Part shown: positions 31,014-39,522 of the stretch, piece by piece
Layout: every line of letters begins with the position of its first letter
Numbering within the stretch: the stretch's first letter is position 1
From: an uncultured Saprospiraceae bacterium
GTDB taxonomy: Bacteria > Bacteroidota > Bacteroidia > Chitinophagales > Saprospiraceae
Assembly: GCA_937951615.1 (NCBI GenBank)
Contig: CALFBH010000004.1
Coordinates: 63,228-127,227, forward strand
Reading direction: 5' to 3'
DNA: 64,000 nt
Notes under the pieces: model-generated
Databases searched by the model: none
What the model was told of the DNA's origin: nothing
What the model saw: the letters and a program-made list of their open reading frames with translations, nothing else
Translations under genes and position numbers: made by a program

Positions 31014-31084
31014 CAACTATGGACTATCGACCATCGACTATGGACGTAAACACTTAAACTTATTCTTAAACTTAAACTTAAAAA
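31014..31084. repeat. Heptamer array (CTATGGAC/TATCGAC/CATCGAC) followed by CTTAAACTTAA words directly upstream of the 31085 start
   Basis: The sequence reads caactatggactatcgaccatcgactatggacg ... cacttaaacttattcttaaacttaaacttaaaaa. Confidence 0.75.
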
Positions 31085-31830: not shown

Positions 31831-31954
31831 CAGTCCATAGTCCGCAGTCGATAGTCGATGGCTGTTTTTTTAGTGTTCATGTCATTTCAGTATTTCATTT
31901 TGCTTTGCAAAATGTCTTATTTTTCCATCGACTATGGACCATCGACCATCGACC
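31831..31954. repeat. Hairpin element E2 (same family as E1 and E3)
   Basis: Left arm is cagtccatagtccgcagtcgatagtcgatggctg. Core is cattttgctttgcaaaatg (31896-31914). Right arm is ccatcgactatggaccatcgaccatcgacc. Confidence 0.8.
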
Positions 31955-32007
31955 CCACCAATATTACTATTCAATAAACTATTGACCACACACTTAAATC
32001 TCACATT

Positions 32008-34180: not shown

Positions 34181-34199
34181 ACGATAAGTAAATATTTGC

Positions 34200-34344
34200 G
34201 TCCATAGTCGATGGTCGATAGTCCATGGCTAATTTAACAATATTCCTAATTTCTACAGGTTTTATGCGCATTTTGCAAAGCAAAATGAAATACTAAAATG
34301 ACCTGATTACTAAAAAGACAGCCATCGACCATCGACTATTGACC
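34200..34344. repeat. Hairpin element E3, inverted copy of the E2 core
   Basis: Left arm is gtccatagtcgatggtcgatagtccatggc. Core is cattttgcaaagcaaaatg (34269-34287). Right arm is gccatcgaccatcgactattgacc. Revcomp of 34265-34340 matches E2 31850-31914 over ~75 nt with few mismatches. Confidence 0.8.
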
Positions 34345-34420
34345 ATTTTTGACGGGCCAGCGCCACCACAGCATTTTAGTTTTAAAGCATTGTTGTACAA
34401 GGGAAAAGCTTTTTTTATTT

Positions 34421-34444
34421 TTTTAACTAAAAATTTAGTTAAAA
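34421..34444. promoter_or_regulatory. 11-bp-arm palindrome upstream of the ATPase gene (possible operator or hairpin)
   Basis: ttttaactaaa-aa-tttagttaaaa. It lies 66 nt upstream of the ATG at 34510. Confidence 0.35.
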
Positions 34445-34495
34445 GCCCAACCTTCTTTATCTTTGCTGCGTTATGTGAAATGTAACACTTTTGTT

Positions 34496-34503
34496 TATTT
34501 TTG
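34496..34503 (+). promoter_or_regulatory. Possible Bacteroidota -7 promoter box (TAnnTTTG)
   Basis: tatttttg matches TAnnTTTG. It is only ~7 nt from the ATG, so the transcript would be nearly leaderless. Weak call. Confidence 0.2.
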
Positions 34504-34509
34504 TGTCAA

Positions 34510-35751
34510 ATGAGTGAAAAAATCATCATAGAAAACTTTGGAGGTATTAAAAAAGCCTCCATTCAACTGAACCGGATTAATATTTTTATCGGGCCACAGG
34601 CATCGGGTAAGAGTGTAGTGGCGAAGTTGGTTTATTTTTTTCGGACTTCTATTGGAAACTTAATTGATGGTGGACTAAGTCATGTTACACTAGAAGCGAT
34701 AAGAGAAGGAGAGTCACTTAGGTTTGAAAAATATTTCCCTTCAAATAATTTAGGAAAAAATGACTTTTATTTAAAATATCAAATTAATAAAGAATCCATC
34801 ACAATAATAAAACAACAAGGTAAGGTAAACATTGAATATAGCCCTAAATTTGTAGCCTTACGCAAAGATATAGAGAAACTACTAGACCCAGAAGATGGTG
34901 AGCACAACAAAAAACACCCTGCAAGGCGATACCATGAAATAATATTAAGTGGTATTCCACACCGCTCTGTTAAAGAAAAATTTCCTGCTTCCTCTAGTTA
35001 TAGATCAACACTTATTCCGACAGGAAGATCATTTTTTGCTCAGGTTGAGGCAAGCATTTTTTCTTTGATACAAAATAAAATCCCCATTGATACTTTCTTA
35101 ATCAATTTCGGTGTTACCTACGAAAGCGCAAGAGGTTTTCATAAAGACCACACAATTGATCCTTCTATAACGCAACATATAGACCAGTTAGCATTGTCTA
35201 TACTTAAAGGTGAATATCTCAAAGAAAATAAGAAGGATTATATCGTACATAAAGATGGAAGAAAAGTAGAAGCAAAATATCTTTCGTCAGGACAGCAGGA
35301 AACTCTTCCCTTGATTCTTATACTTCGGCAGGCTGCTTATTCAAATTCTATGGTAGAGCCAGAGTCAATGATGCTAATCGAAGAGCCAGAAGCCAGTATT
35401 TTCCCAGTATCTCAACAAGAAATCGTAAAACTCATCGCTACTGTTTTTAATGTAGCCCAAAACACACAACACTTCCTAATTACCACCCACAGTCCATACA
35501 TTCTAACTGCGTTCAACAACCTCATACAGGCAGGTCTTATGATAGAAGAGGGAATTGATAAGAAGAAAATACACAAAATAGTCCCTGAATTTGAAGTCTT
35601 AAAATCGGGCACAGTTAGTGCTTTTCTGATGAAAAATGGCAGGGTTAAAAATATTATGGACAAGGAGTCAGGATTGATTGCCGCTGATTTAATTGACGAG
35701 GCTTCTGAGAATATTTCCCTTGAATTTGATAAATTGATGGATCTATACTGA
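34510..35751 (+). CDS. ABC-type (SMC/RecF/OLD-like, AAA_15/AAA_21-type) ATPase with no fused effector domain
   Basis: Walker A GPQASGKS, signature-like YLSSGQQE, Walker B/D-loop MMLIEEPEASIFP, H-loop ITTHSPY. The ATG at 34510 is preferred over the track's TTG at 34501. Confidence 0.85.
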   Translation: MSEKIIIENFGGIKKASIQLNRINIFIGPQASGKSVVAKLVYFFRTSIGNLIDGGLSHVTLEAIREGESLRFEKYFPSNNLGKNDFYLKYQINKESITIIKQQGKVNIEYSPKFVALRKDIEKLLDPEDGEHNKKHPARRYHEIILSGIPHRSVKEKFPASSSYRSTLIPTGRSFFAQVEASIFSLIQNKIPIDTFLINFGVTYESARGFHKDHTIDPSITQHIDQLALSILKGEYLKENKKDYIVHKDGRKVEAKYLSSGQQETLPLILILRQAAYSNSMVEPESMMLIEEPEASIFPVSQQEIVKLIATVFNVAQNTQHFLITTHSPYILTAFNNLIQAGLMIEEGIDKKKIHKIVPEFEVLKSGTVSAFLMKNGRVKNIMDKESGLIAADLIDEASENISLEFDKLMDLY

Positions 35752-35752
35752 T

Positions 35753-36190
35753 ATGAAAACAGAATGTATCACCGAAAGAACGGATTCGCTTATCGTGCTG
35801 AAAGACTCAAAAGGCGGAAGAAGCAAAATGACCTTTATAAACAGCAAGAATGAATTGGTGAAAGAAGTTGAGGTAGATGGTTGTGAAATAACTGAAGGAA
35901 AAAAATGTGATTTTCTCATTTTGCATCCTAAAAAAGTCAAAAAGAAAACCGTGAATGATGAGTATTTTGTAGAATTGAAAGGCAGGAAAGTCAAATATGC
36001 TTGCGAACAACTTGAAGCAAGCATCAGAAAACTAAGTGACAATCCAACACAAAAGCCAAAACACGCTATTGTTATTTGTACTAAAAATCCATTATCATCA
36101 TCACAAGGTCAAAAACTAAAAATTCAATTTAAGAAAACCCTCAATGCAAAATTGATTATTAGCAAACAATATACCCACAAACTATCATAA
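35753..36190 (+). CDS. Small (145 aa) putative PD-(D/E)xK-fold nuclease, translationally coupled to the ATPase
   Basis: The ATG is 1 nt after the ATPase stop. The motif ...GKKCDFLILHP..(x14)..EYFVELKGRK gives D53 / E74-x-K76 in beta-strand-like context, followed by ACEQLEASI. Confidence 0.65.
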   Translation: MKTECITERTDSLIVLKDSKGGRSKMTFINSKNELVKEVEVDGCEITEGKKCDFLILHPKKVKKKTVNDEYFVELKGRKVKYACEQLEASIRKLSDNPTQKPKHAIVICTKNPLSSSQGQKLKIQFKKTLNAKLIISKQYTHKLS

Positions 36191-36258: not shown

Positions 36259-37734
36259 ATGACCATATACACTATATTTGGAATTTGTGCAGTAGCAGCA
36301 CTGGTATTGACCGTTTTATTCGGTGTAGTTCTGAAAAGAAAACCGCACAACTGGCTGATGCTATTCTTGCAGCAGTTTGTTGGTTCTTTATTGATTTTTT
36401 CCGGCTATGTGAAAGCTATTGACCCGAAGGGAACCGTTTATAAAATGGAGCAATATTTTGCTGAATTTGAAAGTGCTGTTGTGGCACCGATTTCAGGCAT
36501 CTTTCCCTTTCTGGCGGAAATGGGGCTGACTTTTTCTATTGCCACTATTGTACTTGAACTCGTGCTGGGCATTTGTTTGATTTTTGGGATCAAGCGCAAA
36601 TTTACGGTTTGGGCTTTATTGCCGATGCTGATCTTTTTTACTTTGCTTACTGGCTTCACTTATCTGACTTCCTACTCGGTCGAGTCGCTGGCTTTTATGT
36701 CTATCATCACGGCAGTTGTGCTGCTGGGTGGTGGGGCTTTATTTGCAAGAGAACGCAAGACCAAAATCGGCTTAGGGATTGGAGCGATTGCAGCCATTGT
36801 GATTATCAATTTACTGATGAAAGAAGGCTATTCCTGGTGGTTCAATTTTGCTGATTGGGAGTATGATAAGAATAAAATGAAGGTGACAGACTGTGGTTGT
36901 TTTGGTGATTTTTTGAAGCTGGAACCTAAAGTCTCTTTCATCAAAGACCTGATTTTGCTACCTATCTCTATCTGGTTTGTAATGGGTTGGCGCAATTTGA
37001 CGGAAGTCGTAGAAAAACGTTCTATCGCTACTGGACTTTTCTGGGGGGCAATTGTATTATCGACTTTATTCTGTTTGAAAAATAGTATTTGGGGCTTGCC
37101 ACAAAGTGATTTCCGCCCATTTGCCGAAGGCATCAACCTACCAGAAGCTAAACAGATCGCCTTGGATGACACGGACATTATAGATCGTTATCTGACCTAT
37201 AAAAACAGTGAAACTGGTGAAGCCGTCGAAATCAAATCTGATGCACTGATGGACAATCAGCACCTTTGGAAAAAGCCGACGCCCTGGGAAGCTGTCAAAG
37301 AAAAAACTCGTGAGGTTGTCATCAAAAAAGGTAGTGATTCCAAGATTAAAGATTTTGAATTTAGCAATGCAGAAGGTGCGGATGTGTCGCATGAAGTCGG
37401 CGCAGCGGGTTATCAATTCATGGTTATTTCATACAGTATGGAAAAAGCCAATCGCAAGTATTTCAAATCGGTGAACGCCATTGCAGCAGCAGCCGAGAAA
37501 GACGGGCATCGCACTTTTGGCATCACACAAATTGCCGATCCTACTGATGTAGATAAATTCCGACATGACTTGCAGGCAGGCTATCCGTTTTATACCGCAG
37601 ATGATATTTTATTGAAAACTATTATCCGGTCAAATCCTGGTGTTTTGTTGCTTAAAGATGGTACGGTTCTCAAGAAATGGCATGGACGCAACCTGCCAGA
37701 CTACAATACGATTAAGCAAGAATATGGGCTTTAG
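36259..37734 (+). CDS. DoxX/MauE-like membrane protein fused to a C-terminal soluble (thioredoxin-like?) domain
   Basis: Multiple TM helices and a DCGCFGDFLK motif typical of MauE/DoxX. The start at MTIYTIFG (36259) is preferred. The track start 36235 lies in the CTTAAACTTAA repeat. Confidence 0.75.
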   Translation: MTIYTIFGICAVAALVLTVLFGVVLKRKPHNWLMLFLQQFVGSLLIFSGYVKAIDPKGTVYKMEQYFAEFESAVVAPISGIFPFLAEMGLTFSIATIVLELVLGICLIFGIKRKFTVWALLPMLIFFTLLTGFTYLTSYSVESLAFMSIITAVVLLGGGALFARERKTKIGLGIGAIAAIVIINLLMKEGYSWWFNFADWEYDKNKMKVTDCGCFGDFLKLEPKVSFIKDLILLPISIWFVMGWRNLTEVVEKRSIATGLFWGAIVLSTLFCLKNSIWGLPQSDFRPFAEGINLPEAKQIALDDTDIIDRYLTYKNSETGEAVEIKSDALMDNQHLWKKPTPWEAVKEKTREVVIKKGSDSKIKDFEFSNAEGADVSHEVGAAGYQFMVISYSMEKANRKYFKSVNAIAAAAEKDGHRTFGITQIADPTDVDKFRHDLQAGYPFYTADDILLKTIIRSNPGVLLLKDGTVLKKWHGRNLPDYNTIKQEYGL

Positions 37735-38016: not shown

Positions 38017-39522
38017 TTATTTTTCACCACTCACCAACACTTTAATTCTCCGTTCCAACCAGAATATATAAATGTCTATTAGTAGAGATTGCTTTGATAA
38101 AAAAGGCTTCAGTTTATTTAACGTTGCCTGACAATGTGCTATTTTTTCTTTATTTGTCATCCTTGTATTCACAACTTTTATGAGGCTTGAATGTATAAAT
38201 TGCTCTATCTCTTCATATATATTTCGCTCTCGACAATAACGGTAGAAGTGGTTCAATAATGATCGAAAAAGCTTTTCATTTCCTCGTTCAAAATGTACTA
38301 GTGCATGTGTCAGCTTCACAACGCCCTGGATAGACTGCATAAAGTCCTTGCCAGGAAAATCATGCATAAAGCGCAGTATCCAATCCTGGCAATGTTCATA
38401 CTGACTTTGCAGAAATGTCCCCTTGATCAAAAAATAATACATATAAGCCTGATCATAAGGCAGACCATCTGAAAATATTTCATCCAGATCGGTTTGCATG
38501 GAGTCAAATTTTTTAAAATCTCGTGACTCTACAGACAATAAGGCCTCCCTGACGATATATTTTTGCCGATGTGTCTGAATCAACCAGTCATTAAAAAAAT
38601 CTGGATAGCGTGTGGGTATTTCCTTGTACTCCTGAAGTACTTTTTTTGCTTTAGCATATTTTCCTCTGTATATCAATGCTGTGATATAGTTTAGATAAAA
38701 ACCAATAAAAGCCTGCATTCTGGAGCTGGAAAATTCCATATTATTTCTCATTTTCTCAATAATCTCTCCCCACTCCTCTGCTGTTTGCATCGACTCTCCT
38801 ACCACGCTTTCCGCAGCGAATTTAGCCTGAACGACCTGTAATCTTGCTTTTAAAGACAATGCTTTATCCTTATCTTTTATCAAAGGATTATTCAGGAGTG
38901 CCTGCATTTCTTCTTTGATTTCTTTTTTGGGATGCCTAGTATAGCGTTGATGAAAATTATACAGATCTGAAGCAATATTTTCTATTTCCTGATAATTGGT
39001 TTCTTTCTGTAAGCAGGACAATGTCTCTTGATACAGTTGATGGCGTTTTTTGATAAAATCTTCTCCCGATGTTTTAGCTTTAAGTATCCATACTTGCAGG
39101 CGATTAAACTCTACTACATCCAGAAATGTTTCTCTTTTTAATGCTTTTGCTCTGGGTTTGATCATCAGTTTTTCAGCATGTTCATTGAGTCCTTTACTGA
39201 ATAATATGAGTGCCATCTTGCGACTGTCCATCTCCTCAAAATGCGGGGTCTTCATATAATAATAATCTGACAGCATTTTCAGCACCAAACTGTATAACAA
39301 ATTTTTATAATAAGAAAACTGGCTAAGAAGCTTCTCATCATTTATCTTTTGTTTGAGCAAATCTTCATTGGGTGTTTTAGCCTGTGCGATATAATCAAAT
39401 AGCTGGATAACTTTTGCCTCATTCTTTTTCTGGTAGCGGGAAGTGTATATTTTAAAATATCGCTTTTCATGTTTATCCAAAGCATGAATAAGTTCGTAGA
39501 GTTTTTGAGATGATTTGCTCAT
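38017..39522 (-). CDS. ~500-aa all-helical (TPR-like) protein, paralog family member 1
   Basis: The N-terminus LYELIHALDKHEKRYFKIYTSRYQKKNEAKVIQLFDYI parallels the N-termini of 40845..42368 and 57287..58726. Rich in helix-forming residues. No TM segment or signal peptide. Confidence 0.75.
   Translation of the reverse strand: MSKSSQKLYELIHALDKHEKRYFKIYTSRYQKKNEAKVIQLFDYIAQAKTPNEDLLKQKINDEKLLSQFSYYKNLLYSLVLKMLSDYYYMKTPHFEEMDSRKMALILFSKGLNEHAEKLMIKPRAKALKRETFLDVVEFNRLQVWILKAKTSGEDFIKKRHQLYQETLSCLQKETNYQEIENIASDLYNFHQRYTRHPKKEIKEEMQALLNNPLIKDKDKALSLKARLQVVQAKFAAESVVGESMQTAEEWGEIIEKMRNNMEFSSSRMQAFIGFYLNYITALIYRGKYAKAKKVLQEYKEIPTRYPDFFNDWLIQTHRQKYIVREALLSVESRDFKKFDSMQTDLDEIFSDGLPYDQAYMYYFLIKGTFLQSQYEHCQDWILRFMHDFPGKDFMQSIQGVVKLTHALVHFERGNEKLFRSLLNHFYRYCRERNIYEEIEQFIHSSLIKVVNTRMTNKEKIAHCQATLNKLKPFLSKQSLLIDIYIFWLERRIKVLVSGEK

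Follow-up and report, generated by a model that had tools for sequence, protein, structure and literature searches.

A PtuA-like ABC ATPase and a small, predicted PD-(D/E)xK-type partner in a Saprospiraceae genome: a divergent branch of the candidate phage defence system PDC-M29

Septu, PARIS and HEC-02 are defence systems in which an ATP-binding cassette (ABC) ATPase is joined to an effector. In Septu and the type I-A retron PtuAB, a small nuclease gene stands immediately downstream of the ATPase gene; in PARIS, which is often found on prophages or satellites, an ABC ATPase scaffold (AriA) is combined with a separately encoded nuclease (AriB); and in HEC-02, reported as experimentally confirmed, an ABC ATPase is paired with a NERD protein (Payne et al., 2024, bioRxiv 10.1101/2024.01.29.577857). 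The same study took cassettes lying inside BREX, DISARM or type I restriction-modification (RM) loci and derived 145 phage defence candidates (PDCs) from them (Payne et al., bioRxiv 10.1101/2024.01.29.577857). The subject of this analysis is a two-gene cassette of comparable design in an uncultured Saprospiraceae bacterium (GCA_937951615.1, contig CALFBH010000004.1, 63,228-127,227 of the forward strand; the whole stretch of 64,000 nt is called the window, and positions are counted within it). Both genes lie on the + strand: an ABC ATPase gene at 34510..35751, encoding 413 aa from its ATG (an alternative TTG start at 34501 would give 416 aa), and a small partner gene at 35753..36190, encoding 145 aa that resemble PDC-M29B and are predicted to form a minimal PD-(D/E)xK-type nuclease. 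The sequence places the two genes 1 nt apart (TGA at 35749-35751, ATG at 35753), and these open reading frames (ORFs), as delimited in the first-pass annotation of this DNA, were confirmed from the ORF list and the sequence. We regard the pair as probably, if not securely, an ATPase-plus-nuclease conflict module of the defence type and a divergent member of the candidate system PDC-M29.

PDC-M29 is listed in PADLOC-DB v2 as cassette CAS_00123, FAM_00005>>FAM_02872, in which FAM_00005 is the same ATPase family as in HEC-01, and its authors do not demand embedding for every PDC instance (bioRxiv 10.1101/2024.01.29.577857). The number 110 given with the listing is taken to be its instance count. 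Like the window pair, PDC-M29 comprises an ABC ATPase of ~410 aa and then a small protein, adjacent and on one strand. The window ATPase matches the PADLOC model PDC-M29A with an E of 2.4e-24 (84 bits) in three stretches, which extend to model positions 276-406 of 410 and include the C-terminal extension, and this model is matched by 34 of 34 ATPase family members (best 6e-35). For the small protein, PDC-M29B is the sole PADLOC match (E 9e-6, 23.9 bits), with residues 47-138 aligned on model positions 69-159 of 164, a span of 55% of the model that may be too short for a PADLOC coverage cut-off; within the small-protein family 47 of 53 members match PDLC04563 (best 1.4e-13) and 24 match PDLC04564. 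As judged from these profile matches, the pair is already catalogued as candidate PDC-M29, contrary to the first-pass suggestion that it might not be, and the window clade is a divergent branch, a distant one because scores are modest and coverage of the B model is partial. A match to a named system had there been counted against the proposal; PDC-M29 is indeed matched, but it is only a named candidate and the window clade diverges from it. The PDC-M29B model has 164 positions, and many viral-contig relatives reach ~180 aa, whereas the B proteins of the window clade measure about 135-147 aa; and the proposal of PDC-M29 was based on cassettes inside BREX, DISARM or type I RM loci, whereas the window copy is flanked by metabolic and membrane genes instead.

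The first gene product is, on its motifs and predicted structure, a catalytically intact PtuA-like ABC ATPase of the SMC/RecF/OLD-like superfamily (AAA_15/AAA_21). Pfam assigns it to AAA_15 (6e-22, 79.1 bits against a cut-off of 32.1) and AAA_21 (6e-16, 59.9 bits against a cut-off of 27), with SMC_N and RecF-like matches below threshold. Walker A (GPQASGKS, G28-K34-S35), the signature (LSSGQQ, S259-S-G-Q-Q263), the Walker B/D-loop (MMLIEEPEASIFP, I290-E-E-P-E294) and the H-loop (ITTHSP, T325-T-H-S-P329) stand in order and are invariant across 34 full-length homologues. The AlphaFold2 (AF2) model (pLDDT, the predicted score of the local distance difference test, 84; predicted template modelling score, pTM, 0.87) matches the heads of PtuA and Rad50. 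Its nearest solved structures and best Foldseek matches are PtuA of Septu and of retron I-A, with E from 2.5e-11 to 1e-8 and template modelling (TM) scores of 0.45-0.5, and Rad50 ranks after them. A sequence-profile search of the PDB found PtuA at E 3e-9 to 3e-6, with the C-terminal ABC half alone aligned, and OLD (6p74) at 6e-8. The window ATPase is not a PtuA equivalog (41.2 bits on the NCBIfam PtuA model, for which the cut-off is 500). No fused effector domain is present in the Pfam assignments or in the AF2 model; Pfam, AF2 and Foldseek concur with the first description of an AAA_15/AAA_21-type ABC ATPase that lacks one. Homologues are numerous, with more than 4,700 proteins at E <= 0.001 among 8,000 candidates evaluated and, among the matches listed, 120 full-length relatives, mostly at 36-47% identity.

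Septu PtuB is an HNH nuclease, whereas the window partner is without an HNH signature and carries a PD-(D/E)xK-type motif; Pfam gave no HNH family match for it or for 53 plus 27 relatives. HEC-02 couples an ABC ATPase to a separate nuclease of the PD-(D/E)xK superfamily, as is predicted for the window pair, and the window ATPase partly matches HEC-02A (E ~4e-14), but the window partner is shorter than the NERD protein of HEC-02 and forms a family of its own; neither it nor its relatives match Pfam NERD, which the YraN gene of the window does match. In PARIS the nuclease AriB is of the TOPRIM/DUF4435 type, unlike the window partner, for which Pfam and PADLOC returned no TOPRIM, DUF4435 or AriB match. 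The PADLOC AriA models PDLC02979 and PDLC02980 match the window ATPase, but since their lengths and matched spans are identical to those of Pfam AAA_15 and AAA_21, these look like generic ATPase-domain matches and not like AriA membership. The OLD-family nucleases and GajA of Gabija belong to the same ABC ATPase clade as the window ATPase; there a TOPRIM nuclease is fused to the ATPase, whereas in the window the putative effector has its own gene and a different predicted fold.

The small protein belongs to no Pfam, NCBIfam or PHROG family. It carries CDFLIL (D53) and FVELKG (E74, K76) in a D-x20-E-x-K spacing, and across 76 to 86 orthologues the invariant positions are C5, D42, C44, C52, D53, E74, L75, K76 and Q86. 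When 26 divergent viral-contig partners, down to ~20% identity, are added, this set shrinks to D42, D53, E74-L-K76-G77 and Q86. The invariance of D53, E74 and K76 was checked in three sets, of 76, 86 and 27 sequences, and all motifs quoted for both proteins in the first-pass annotation are present in the translations. The three cysteines (codons at 35765-35767, 35882-35884 and 35906-35908) are conserved in the closer clade of ~86 orthologues only; two of them flank the acidic D42 and D53, and the divergent viral-contig relatives have other residues in place of C44 and C52. The cluster could be a clade-specific zinc site, a disulfide or a redox switch. Among the near-identical viral contigs (L106-L125, L128, L132 and L133) the B protein is longer, about 181-183 aa, with an additional cysteine-rich N-terminal insert (CKCF...SKCRC), and this group may be nearer to the PDC-M29B model than the window clade is. 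An initial impression of a rare orphan, given by a word-indexed search that found 11 relatives, was overturned by a genome scan anchored on the ATPase and by an exhaustive hidden Markov model (HMM) search: the latter, run over 1.84 billion representatives of 50%-identity clusters, yielded 2,816 relatives at E <= 1e-3, of which the best 150 are all short (98-161 aa).

The AF2 model of the small protein (pLDDT 92, pTM 0.89) places a strand at 54-62, a strand at 65-77, a helix at 80-94, a strand at 103-109 and a helix at 116-130. This is the beta-beta-alpha-beta-alpha part of the restriction-endonuclease core, with four short N-terminal strands in place of the usual first helix. D53 lies directly before strand 54-62, the paired strand 65-77 has E74 and K76 at its end, and Q86 lies on helix 80-94. 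Database comparisons lean in the same direction while remaining below significance. The top 9 PDB fold matches are all PD-(D/E)xK nucleases (Mus81, MspJI), with AspBHI, HinP1I and NucS lower down, and the sub-threshold Pfam matches of family members concentrate in the PD-(D/E)xK clan (NucS_C 0.0013, DUF2726 0.0032, HSDR_N 0.0038, and further HSDR_N_2, SfsA, PDDEXK_3 and Tox-REase-9). A PD-(D/E)xK-type nuclease is consequently the best reading of the predicted structure, because of the invariant residues and the topology and not because of any significant database match.

The two genes are a conserved and tightly coupled module, co-inherited across many phyla. Across 185,579 species genomes, scanning confirmed 573 loci of the ATPase, and in the best 80 of these, from which the pair statistics are drawn, an HMM detects a small-protein homologue directly after the ATPase in 78, the exceptions being L063 and L083; the count of 78 includes two loci cut by contig ends and one that is frameshifted. 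Gaps between the two genes are mostly -17 to +19 nt in these 80 loci. The hosts include Cyanobacteria, Bacteroidota, Acidobacteriota, Chloroflexota, Planctomycetota, Verrucomicrobiota, Armatimonadota, Nitrospirales, Methylobacter and Desulfobacteraceae. Homologues of the two genes do, therefore, co-occur elsewhere, as the first-pass annotation had proposed to check, and the flanks of the pair differ in nearly every genome. A conserved third gene was considered for the family and rejected, the gene after the pair varying in orientation, distance and size. Some small genes may be decaying copies: in Chitinophaga filiformis (L014, 7158-7644) the partner gene is broken by a frameshift, and at L166 (3675-3986) it appears shortened N-terminally.

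The pair also lies on (pro)viral contigs. In IMG/VR 122 relatives of the ATPase were found, and of the 80 loci fetched 48 have the small partner after the ATPase. Neighbours on these viral contigs are CI-like and other repressors, integrases, Ant, CII and UmuD-like proteins, portal and terminase; the setting is the lysogeny region of prophages, a typical site of carried defence genes.

Within the window the local arrangement is more particular. On the 5' side the cassette is preceded by a gene of the HpaB/AbfD family, itself preceded by a MaoC gene and an SDR gene, and on the 3' side it is followed by a MauE/DoxX-like membrane protein gene at 36259..37734 (+ strand, 491 aa from ATG, Pfam MauE 5.9e-8). 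The order ATPase, small gene, MauE-like gene recurs in five Saprospiraceae-type loci (the window, L002, L003/L004, L166 and L174), with the MauE-like gene overlapping the small gene by 4 nt in L002 and L003, and the window, L002 and L003 have dissimilar outer flanks. Ahead of the ATPase, at 34421..34444 (no strand assigned), stands a perfect palindrome of 24 nt, TTTTAACTAAA-AA-TTTAGTTAAAA, whose 11-nt arms, 100% complementary as the first reading had it, are parted by a 2-nt spacer; the chance expectation is 0 matches. Past it by 13 nt, at 34458..34465 (+ strand), lies TATCTTTG, which fits TAnnTTTG, the -7 consensus of Bacteroides promoters and here of Bacteroidota generally, and a second match, TATTTTTG, lies at 34496-34503 (+ strand), 6 nt before the ATG. 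The second box is yielded by a 29-nt direct repeat of 72% identity (34474-34503 vs 34394-34422). In L003 a single TAnnTTTG box stands 4 nt ahead of the start codon. The ATPase mRNA may be leaderless or nearly so. The palindrome is conserved 5' of the ATPase in the same five loci, and its spacing to the -7 box is kept in six loci, so that the promoter block can be written as the palindrome TTAACTAAA-N2-3-TTTAGTT, ~20 nt, and then TAnnTTTG. No known RNA was found in the upstream region, and a scan with sigma-70-type promoter and terminator models gave no more sites than shuffled sequence, the sigma-70 model being unsuited to Bacteroidota.

This promoter block also stands before MauE-like genes with no pair beside them (L211 3809-3860, L179 3880-3930), and the palindrome core alone occurs ~50 nt before an unrelated 201-aa ORF in L027 (about 3547); upstream palindromes are not general in the ATPase-pair family. 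A reading of the palindrome as an operator or autoregulatory site specific to the cassette is accordingly rejected, and the recurring block suggests a putative binding site for a lineage-specific regulator. Identities to the L002/L003 orthologues are 83/70% for the MauE-like protein, 65/44% for the ATPase and 73/62% for the small protein, which indicates that the pair evolves faster than the adjoining MauE-like core gene, and 77 of 79 MauE-like loci from metagenomes are without the pair (these 79 were recovered with an alignment as query, a single-sequence query having found none). Given that the same block precedes cassette-less MauE-like genes, the most economical account is insertion of the cassette into the 5' leader, between host promoter and MauE-like gene, in an ancestor of this sub-clade, with expression now coming from the host promoter. 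Because the cassette lies between palindrome promoter and MauE-like gene, the latter, a neighbouring core gene, is probably cotranscribed with it. The first-pass annotation had placed the pair between a metabolic operon and an unrelated membrane gene; the flanks are as it described, but the membrane gene is positionally related, the cassette lying between it and its promoter.

The base composition of the pair is suggestive. Against a window guanine-plus-cytosine (GC) content of 0.403 and a mean of 0.409 (standard deviation 0.034) for 42 window ORFs, the ATPase gene has 0.356 (z -1.6) and the small gene 0.329 (z -2.4), the lowest of the 42. Three further window genes stand at about 0.353-0.355. 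The AT-richness noted at first is thus real but moderate: it holds most clearly for the small gene, and it is not exclusive to the pair within the window.

How such a module might work can be sketched by analogy with Septu and retron PtuAB and with PARIS. An ATPase oligomer would keep the small nuclease inactive; a cue derived from the phage, such as a phage protein, foreign DNA ends or a drop in ATP, would shift the state of the ATPase, and the nuclease would be freed or activated; it would then cut DNA or transfer RNA (tRNA), and infection would be stopped, probably at the expense of the cell. Both the nuclease activity and the anti-phage function of the pair are things that we infer from these relatives. 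A more ambitious form of the proposal holds that the 145-aa protein founds a near-minimal PD-(D/E)xK family, marked by the four N-terminal strands and, in one clade, by the three cysteines beside the active site, that the PtuA-like ATPase gates this nuclease, and that together they form a widespread anti-phage system with a new trigger and a new target (DNA or tRNA), its scope being at least 2,800 clusters at 50% identity in Cyanobacteria, Bacteroidota, Acidobacteriota and prophages. To this fuller version we give slightly less than an even chance.

Several observations weigh against a defence-type ATPase-plus-nuclease module. For the small protein there was no Foldseek match at E <= 1e-3 in the PDB or BFVD; the best were Mus81 at E 0.014 and MspJI at probability 0.82 and TM 0.35, TM never exceeding 0.36. 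Profile searches of PDB sequences gave it no match, and hhalign against the YraN protein of the window aligned the ExK strands at a probability below 1%. The PD-(D/E)xK proposal as first made is supported by the invariant D-x20-E-x-K and by the fit of topology and weak matches; no significant fold match was obtained. Most of the nearest chromosomal neighbours, taken from 74 genomes, are housekeeping genes with no relation to the pair, and only a minority of 135 nearest neighbours match defence models (mad3, mad8, PDC-S17, LmuB, Uma2, DUF433). Strong defence-island context, which the first-pass annotation had proposed to check, was thus not found among the nearest chromosomal neighbours, and the enrichment, judged without a control set, is weak. 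Plasmids gave no ATPase match at E <= 1e-20. Synteny of the pair with a core gene is stable in five Saprospiraceae loci, which would also be expected of a housekeeping function. Other PDC and HEC candidates have had mixed outcomes when tested, and in the literature we found no paper naming PDC-M29 outside the original supplement and no experiment on PDC-M29 or the window clade.

A selfish addiction module of the toxin-antitoxin kind, or a module for mobile-element maintenance, would also consist of a nuclease toxin restrained by an ATPase, with loss being lethal and defence not the selected function. We consider this unlikely, though the compact, AT-rich and patchily distributed cassette with its variable flanks and its presence in prophages would suit it, as would chromosomal neighbours that are mostly non-defence genes and the Pfam title of AAA_21, 'putative AbiEii toxin, Type IV TA system'. 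The cassette shares its gene order and sizes with ABC ATPase-effector systems shown to defend (Septu, PARIS, HEC-02), the prototype cassettes of PDC-M29 were found inside BREX, DISARM or type I RM loci, and addiction modules abound on plasmids, where no ATPase match was found at E <= 1e-20. The two readings are also compatible, abortive-infection systems often being toxin-antitoxin-like. Distinctly unlikely, in our estimate, is a small protein that is non-catalytic and that serves, on a scaffold resembling a restriction endonuclease, as an adaptor, DNA-binding or sensor subunit, with the ATPase or an unlinked factor as effector. The want of a significant sequence or fold match to characterised nucleases, the replacement of the canonical N-terminal helix by four short strands and the label 'DNA-binding protein' that one source attaches to a homologue are what such a subunit might show; but the only residues invariant family-wide, to ~20% identity, are D42, D53, E74, K76 and Q86, a set that metal-dependent phosphodiester cleavage would call for and that inactivated PD-(D/E)xK domains typically lose, and the ATPase has no effector domain of its own.

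A housekeeping pair for DNA repair or recombination, a miniature analogue of Rad50-Mre11/SbcCD or of RecF-type proteins in which the ATPase senses DNA structures and the nuclease processes them, is very unlikely as we see it. It would draw on the sub-threshold SMC_N and RecF-like matches of the ATPase and on Rad50 among its fold matches, on the structure-specific nucleases Mus81 and NucS among the best weak fold matches of the small protein, and on synteny and probable cotranscription with a core gene in the five Saprospiraceae loci. Set against this, flanks and neighbours vary from genome to genome, the module occurs in prophage immunity regions, its GC content includes the lowest in the window, it diverges much faster than the adjoining core gene, and the closest structure to the ATPase is PtuA, not Rad50. 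Highly improbable is a three-gene system in the window lineage, in which the MauE-like protein would act with the pair as, for example, a membrane-linked sensor or effector. The kept gene order, the 4-nt overlaps, the differing outer flanks and the promoter block shared 5' of the trio are in keeping with it; yet most MauE-like loci do without the pair, no gene is conserved family-wide in the position after the pair, the MauE-like protein shows much higher conservation than the pair does, and the promoter block before cassette-less MauE-like genes suggests that the cassette was inserted into a 5' leader. On this contrast in conservation and on the 77 loci without the pair, the MauE-like gene is rejected as a component of the module, and a defence-type pair of ATPase and predicted nuclease remains the reading we favour.

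Two other features of the window deserve mention. A 501-aa ORF on the - strand (38017-39522), with the MauE-like gene on one side and the YraN (UPF0102) gene on the other, has no Pfam match and a GC content of 0.355; it is missing from the related genome L002, where YraN comes straight after the MauE-like gene, and it may be a second inserted gene. An intergenic structured repeat of ~140 nt occupies 34195-34350, with a second full copy at 31835-31965 and partial copies near 31026 and 23716. It has inverted outer arms (GTCCATAGTCGATGGTCGAT / ATCGACCATCGACTATTGAC) around an inner hairpin (CATTTTGC...GCAAAATG), its core TCGATGGTCGAT is present 7 times in the window, where 0.17 occurrences would be expected, and its RNA fold has a z of -6.4. 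Sited between genes of the abfD-MaoC-SDR cluster, it looks like an element of the REP/MITE type.

The architecture described here opens no new category, because it is already listed as candidate PDC-M29. Should the pair prove active, it would, at ~560 residues, be an experimentally tractable addition to the ABC ATPase-effector defence systems exemplified by Septu, PARIS and HEC-02, and the small protein would define a new family of small PD-(D/E)xK nucleases, one that goes unrecognised by present domain and structure libraries. Locally, the arrangement offers an example of a cassette that would borrow host regulation: five related genomes retain it with a host promoter on one side and a core membrane gene on the other. 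More broadly, the module is abundant in Cyanobacteria, in Bacteroidota and in prophage immunity regions, and its validation would annotate thousands of gene pairs now called 'hypothetical'.

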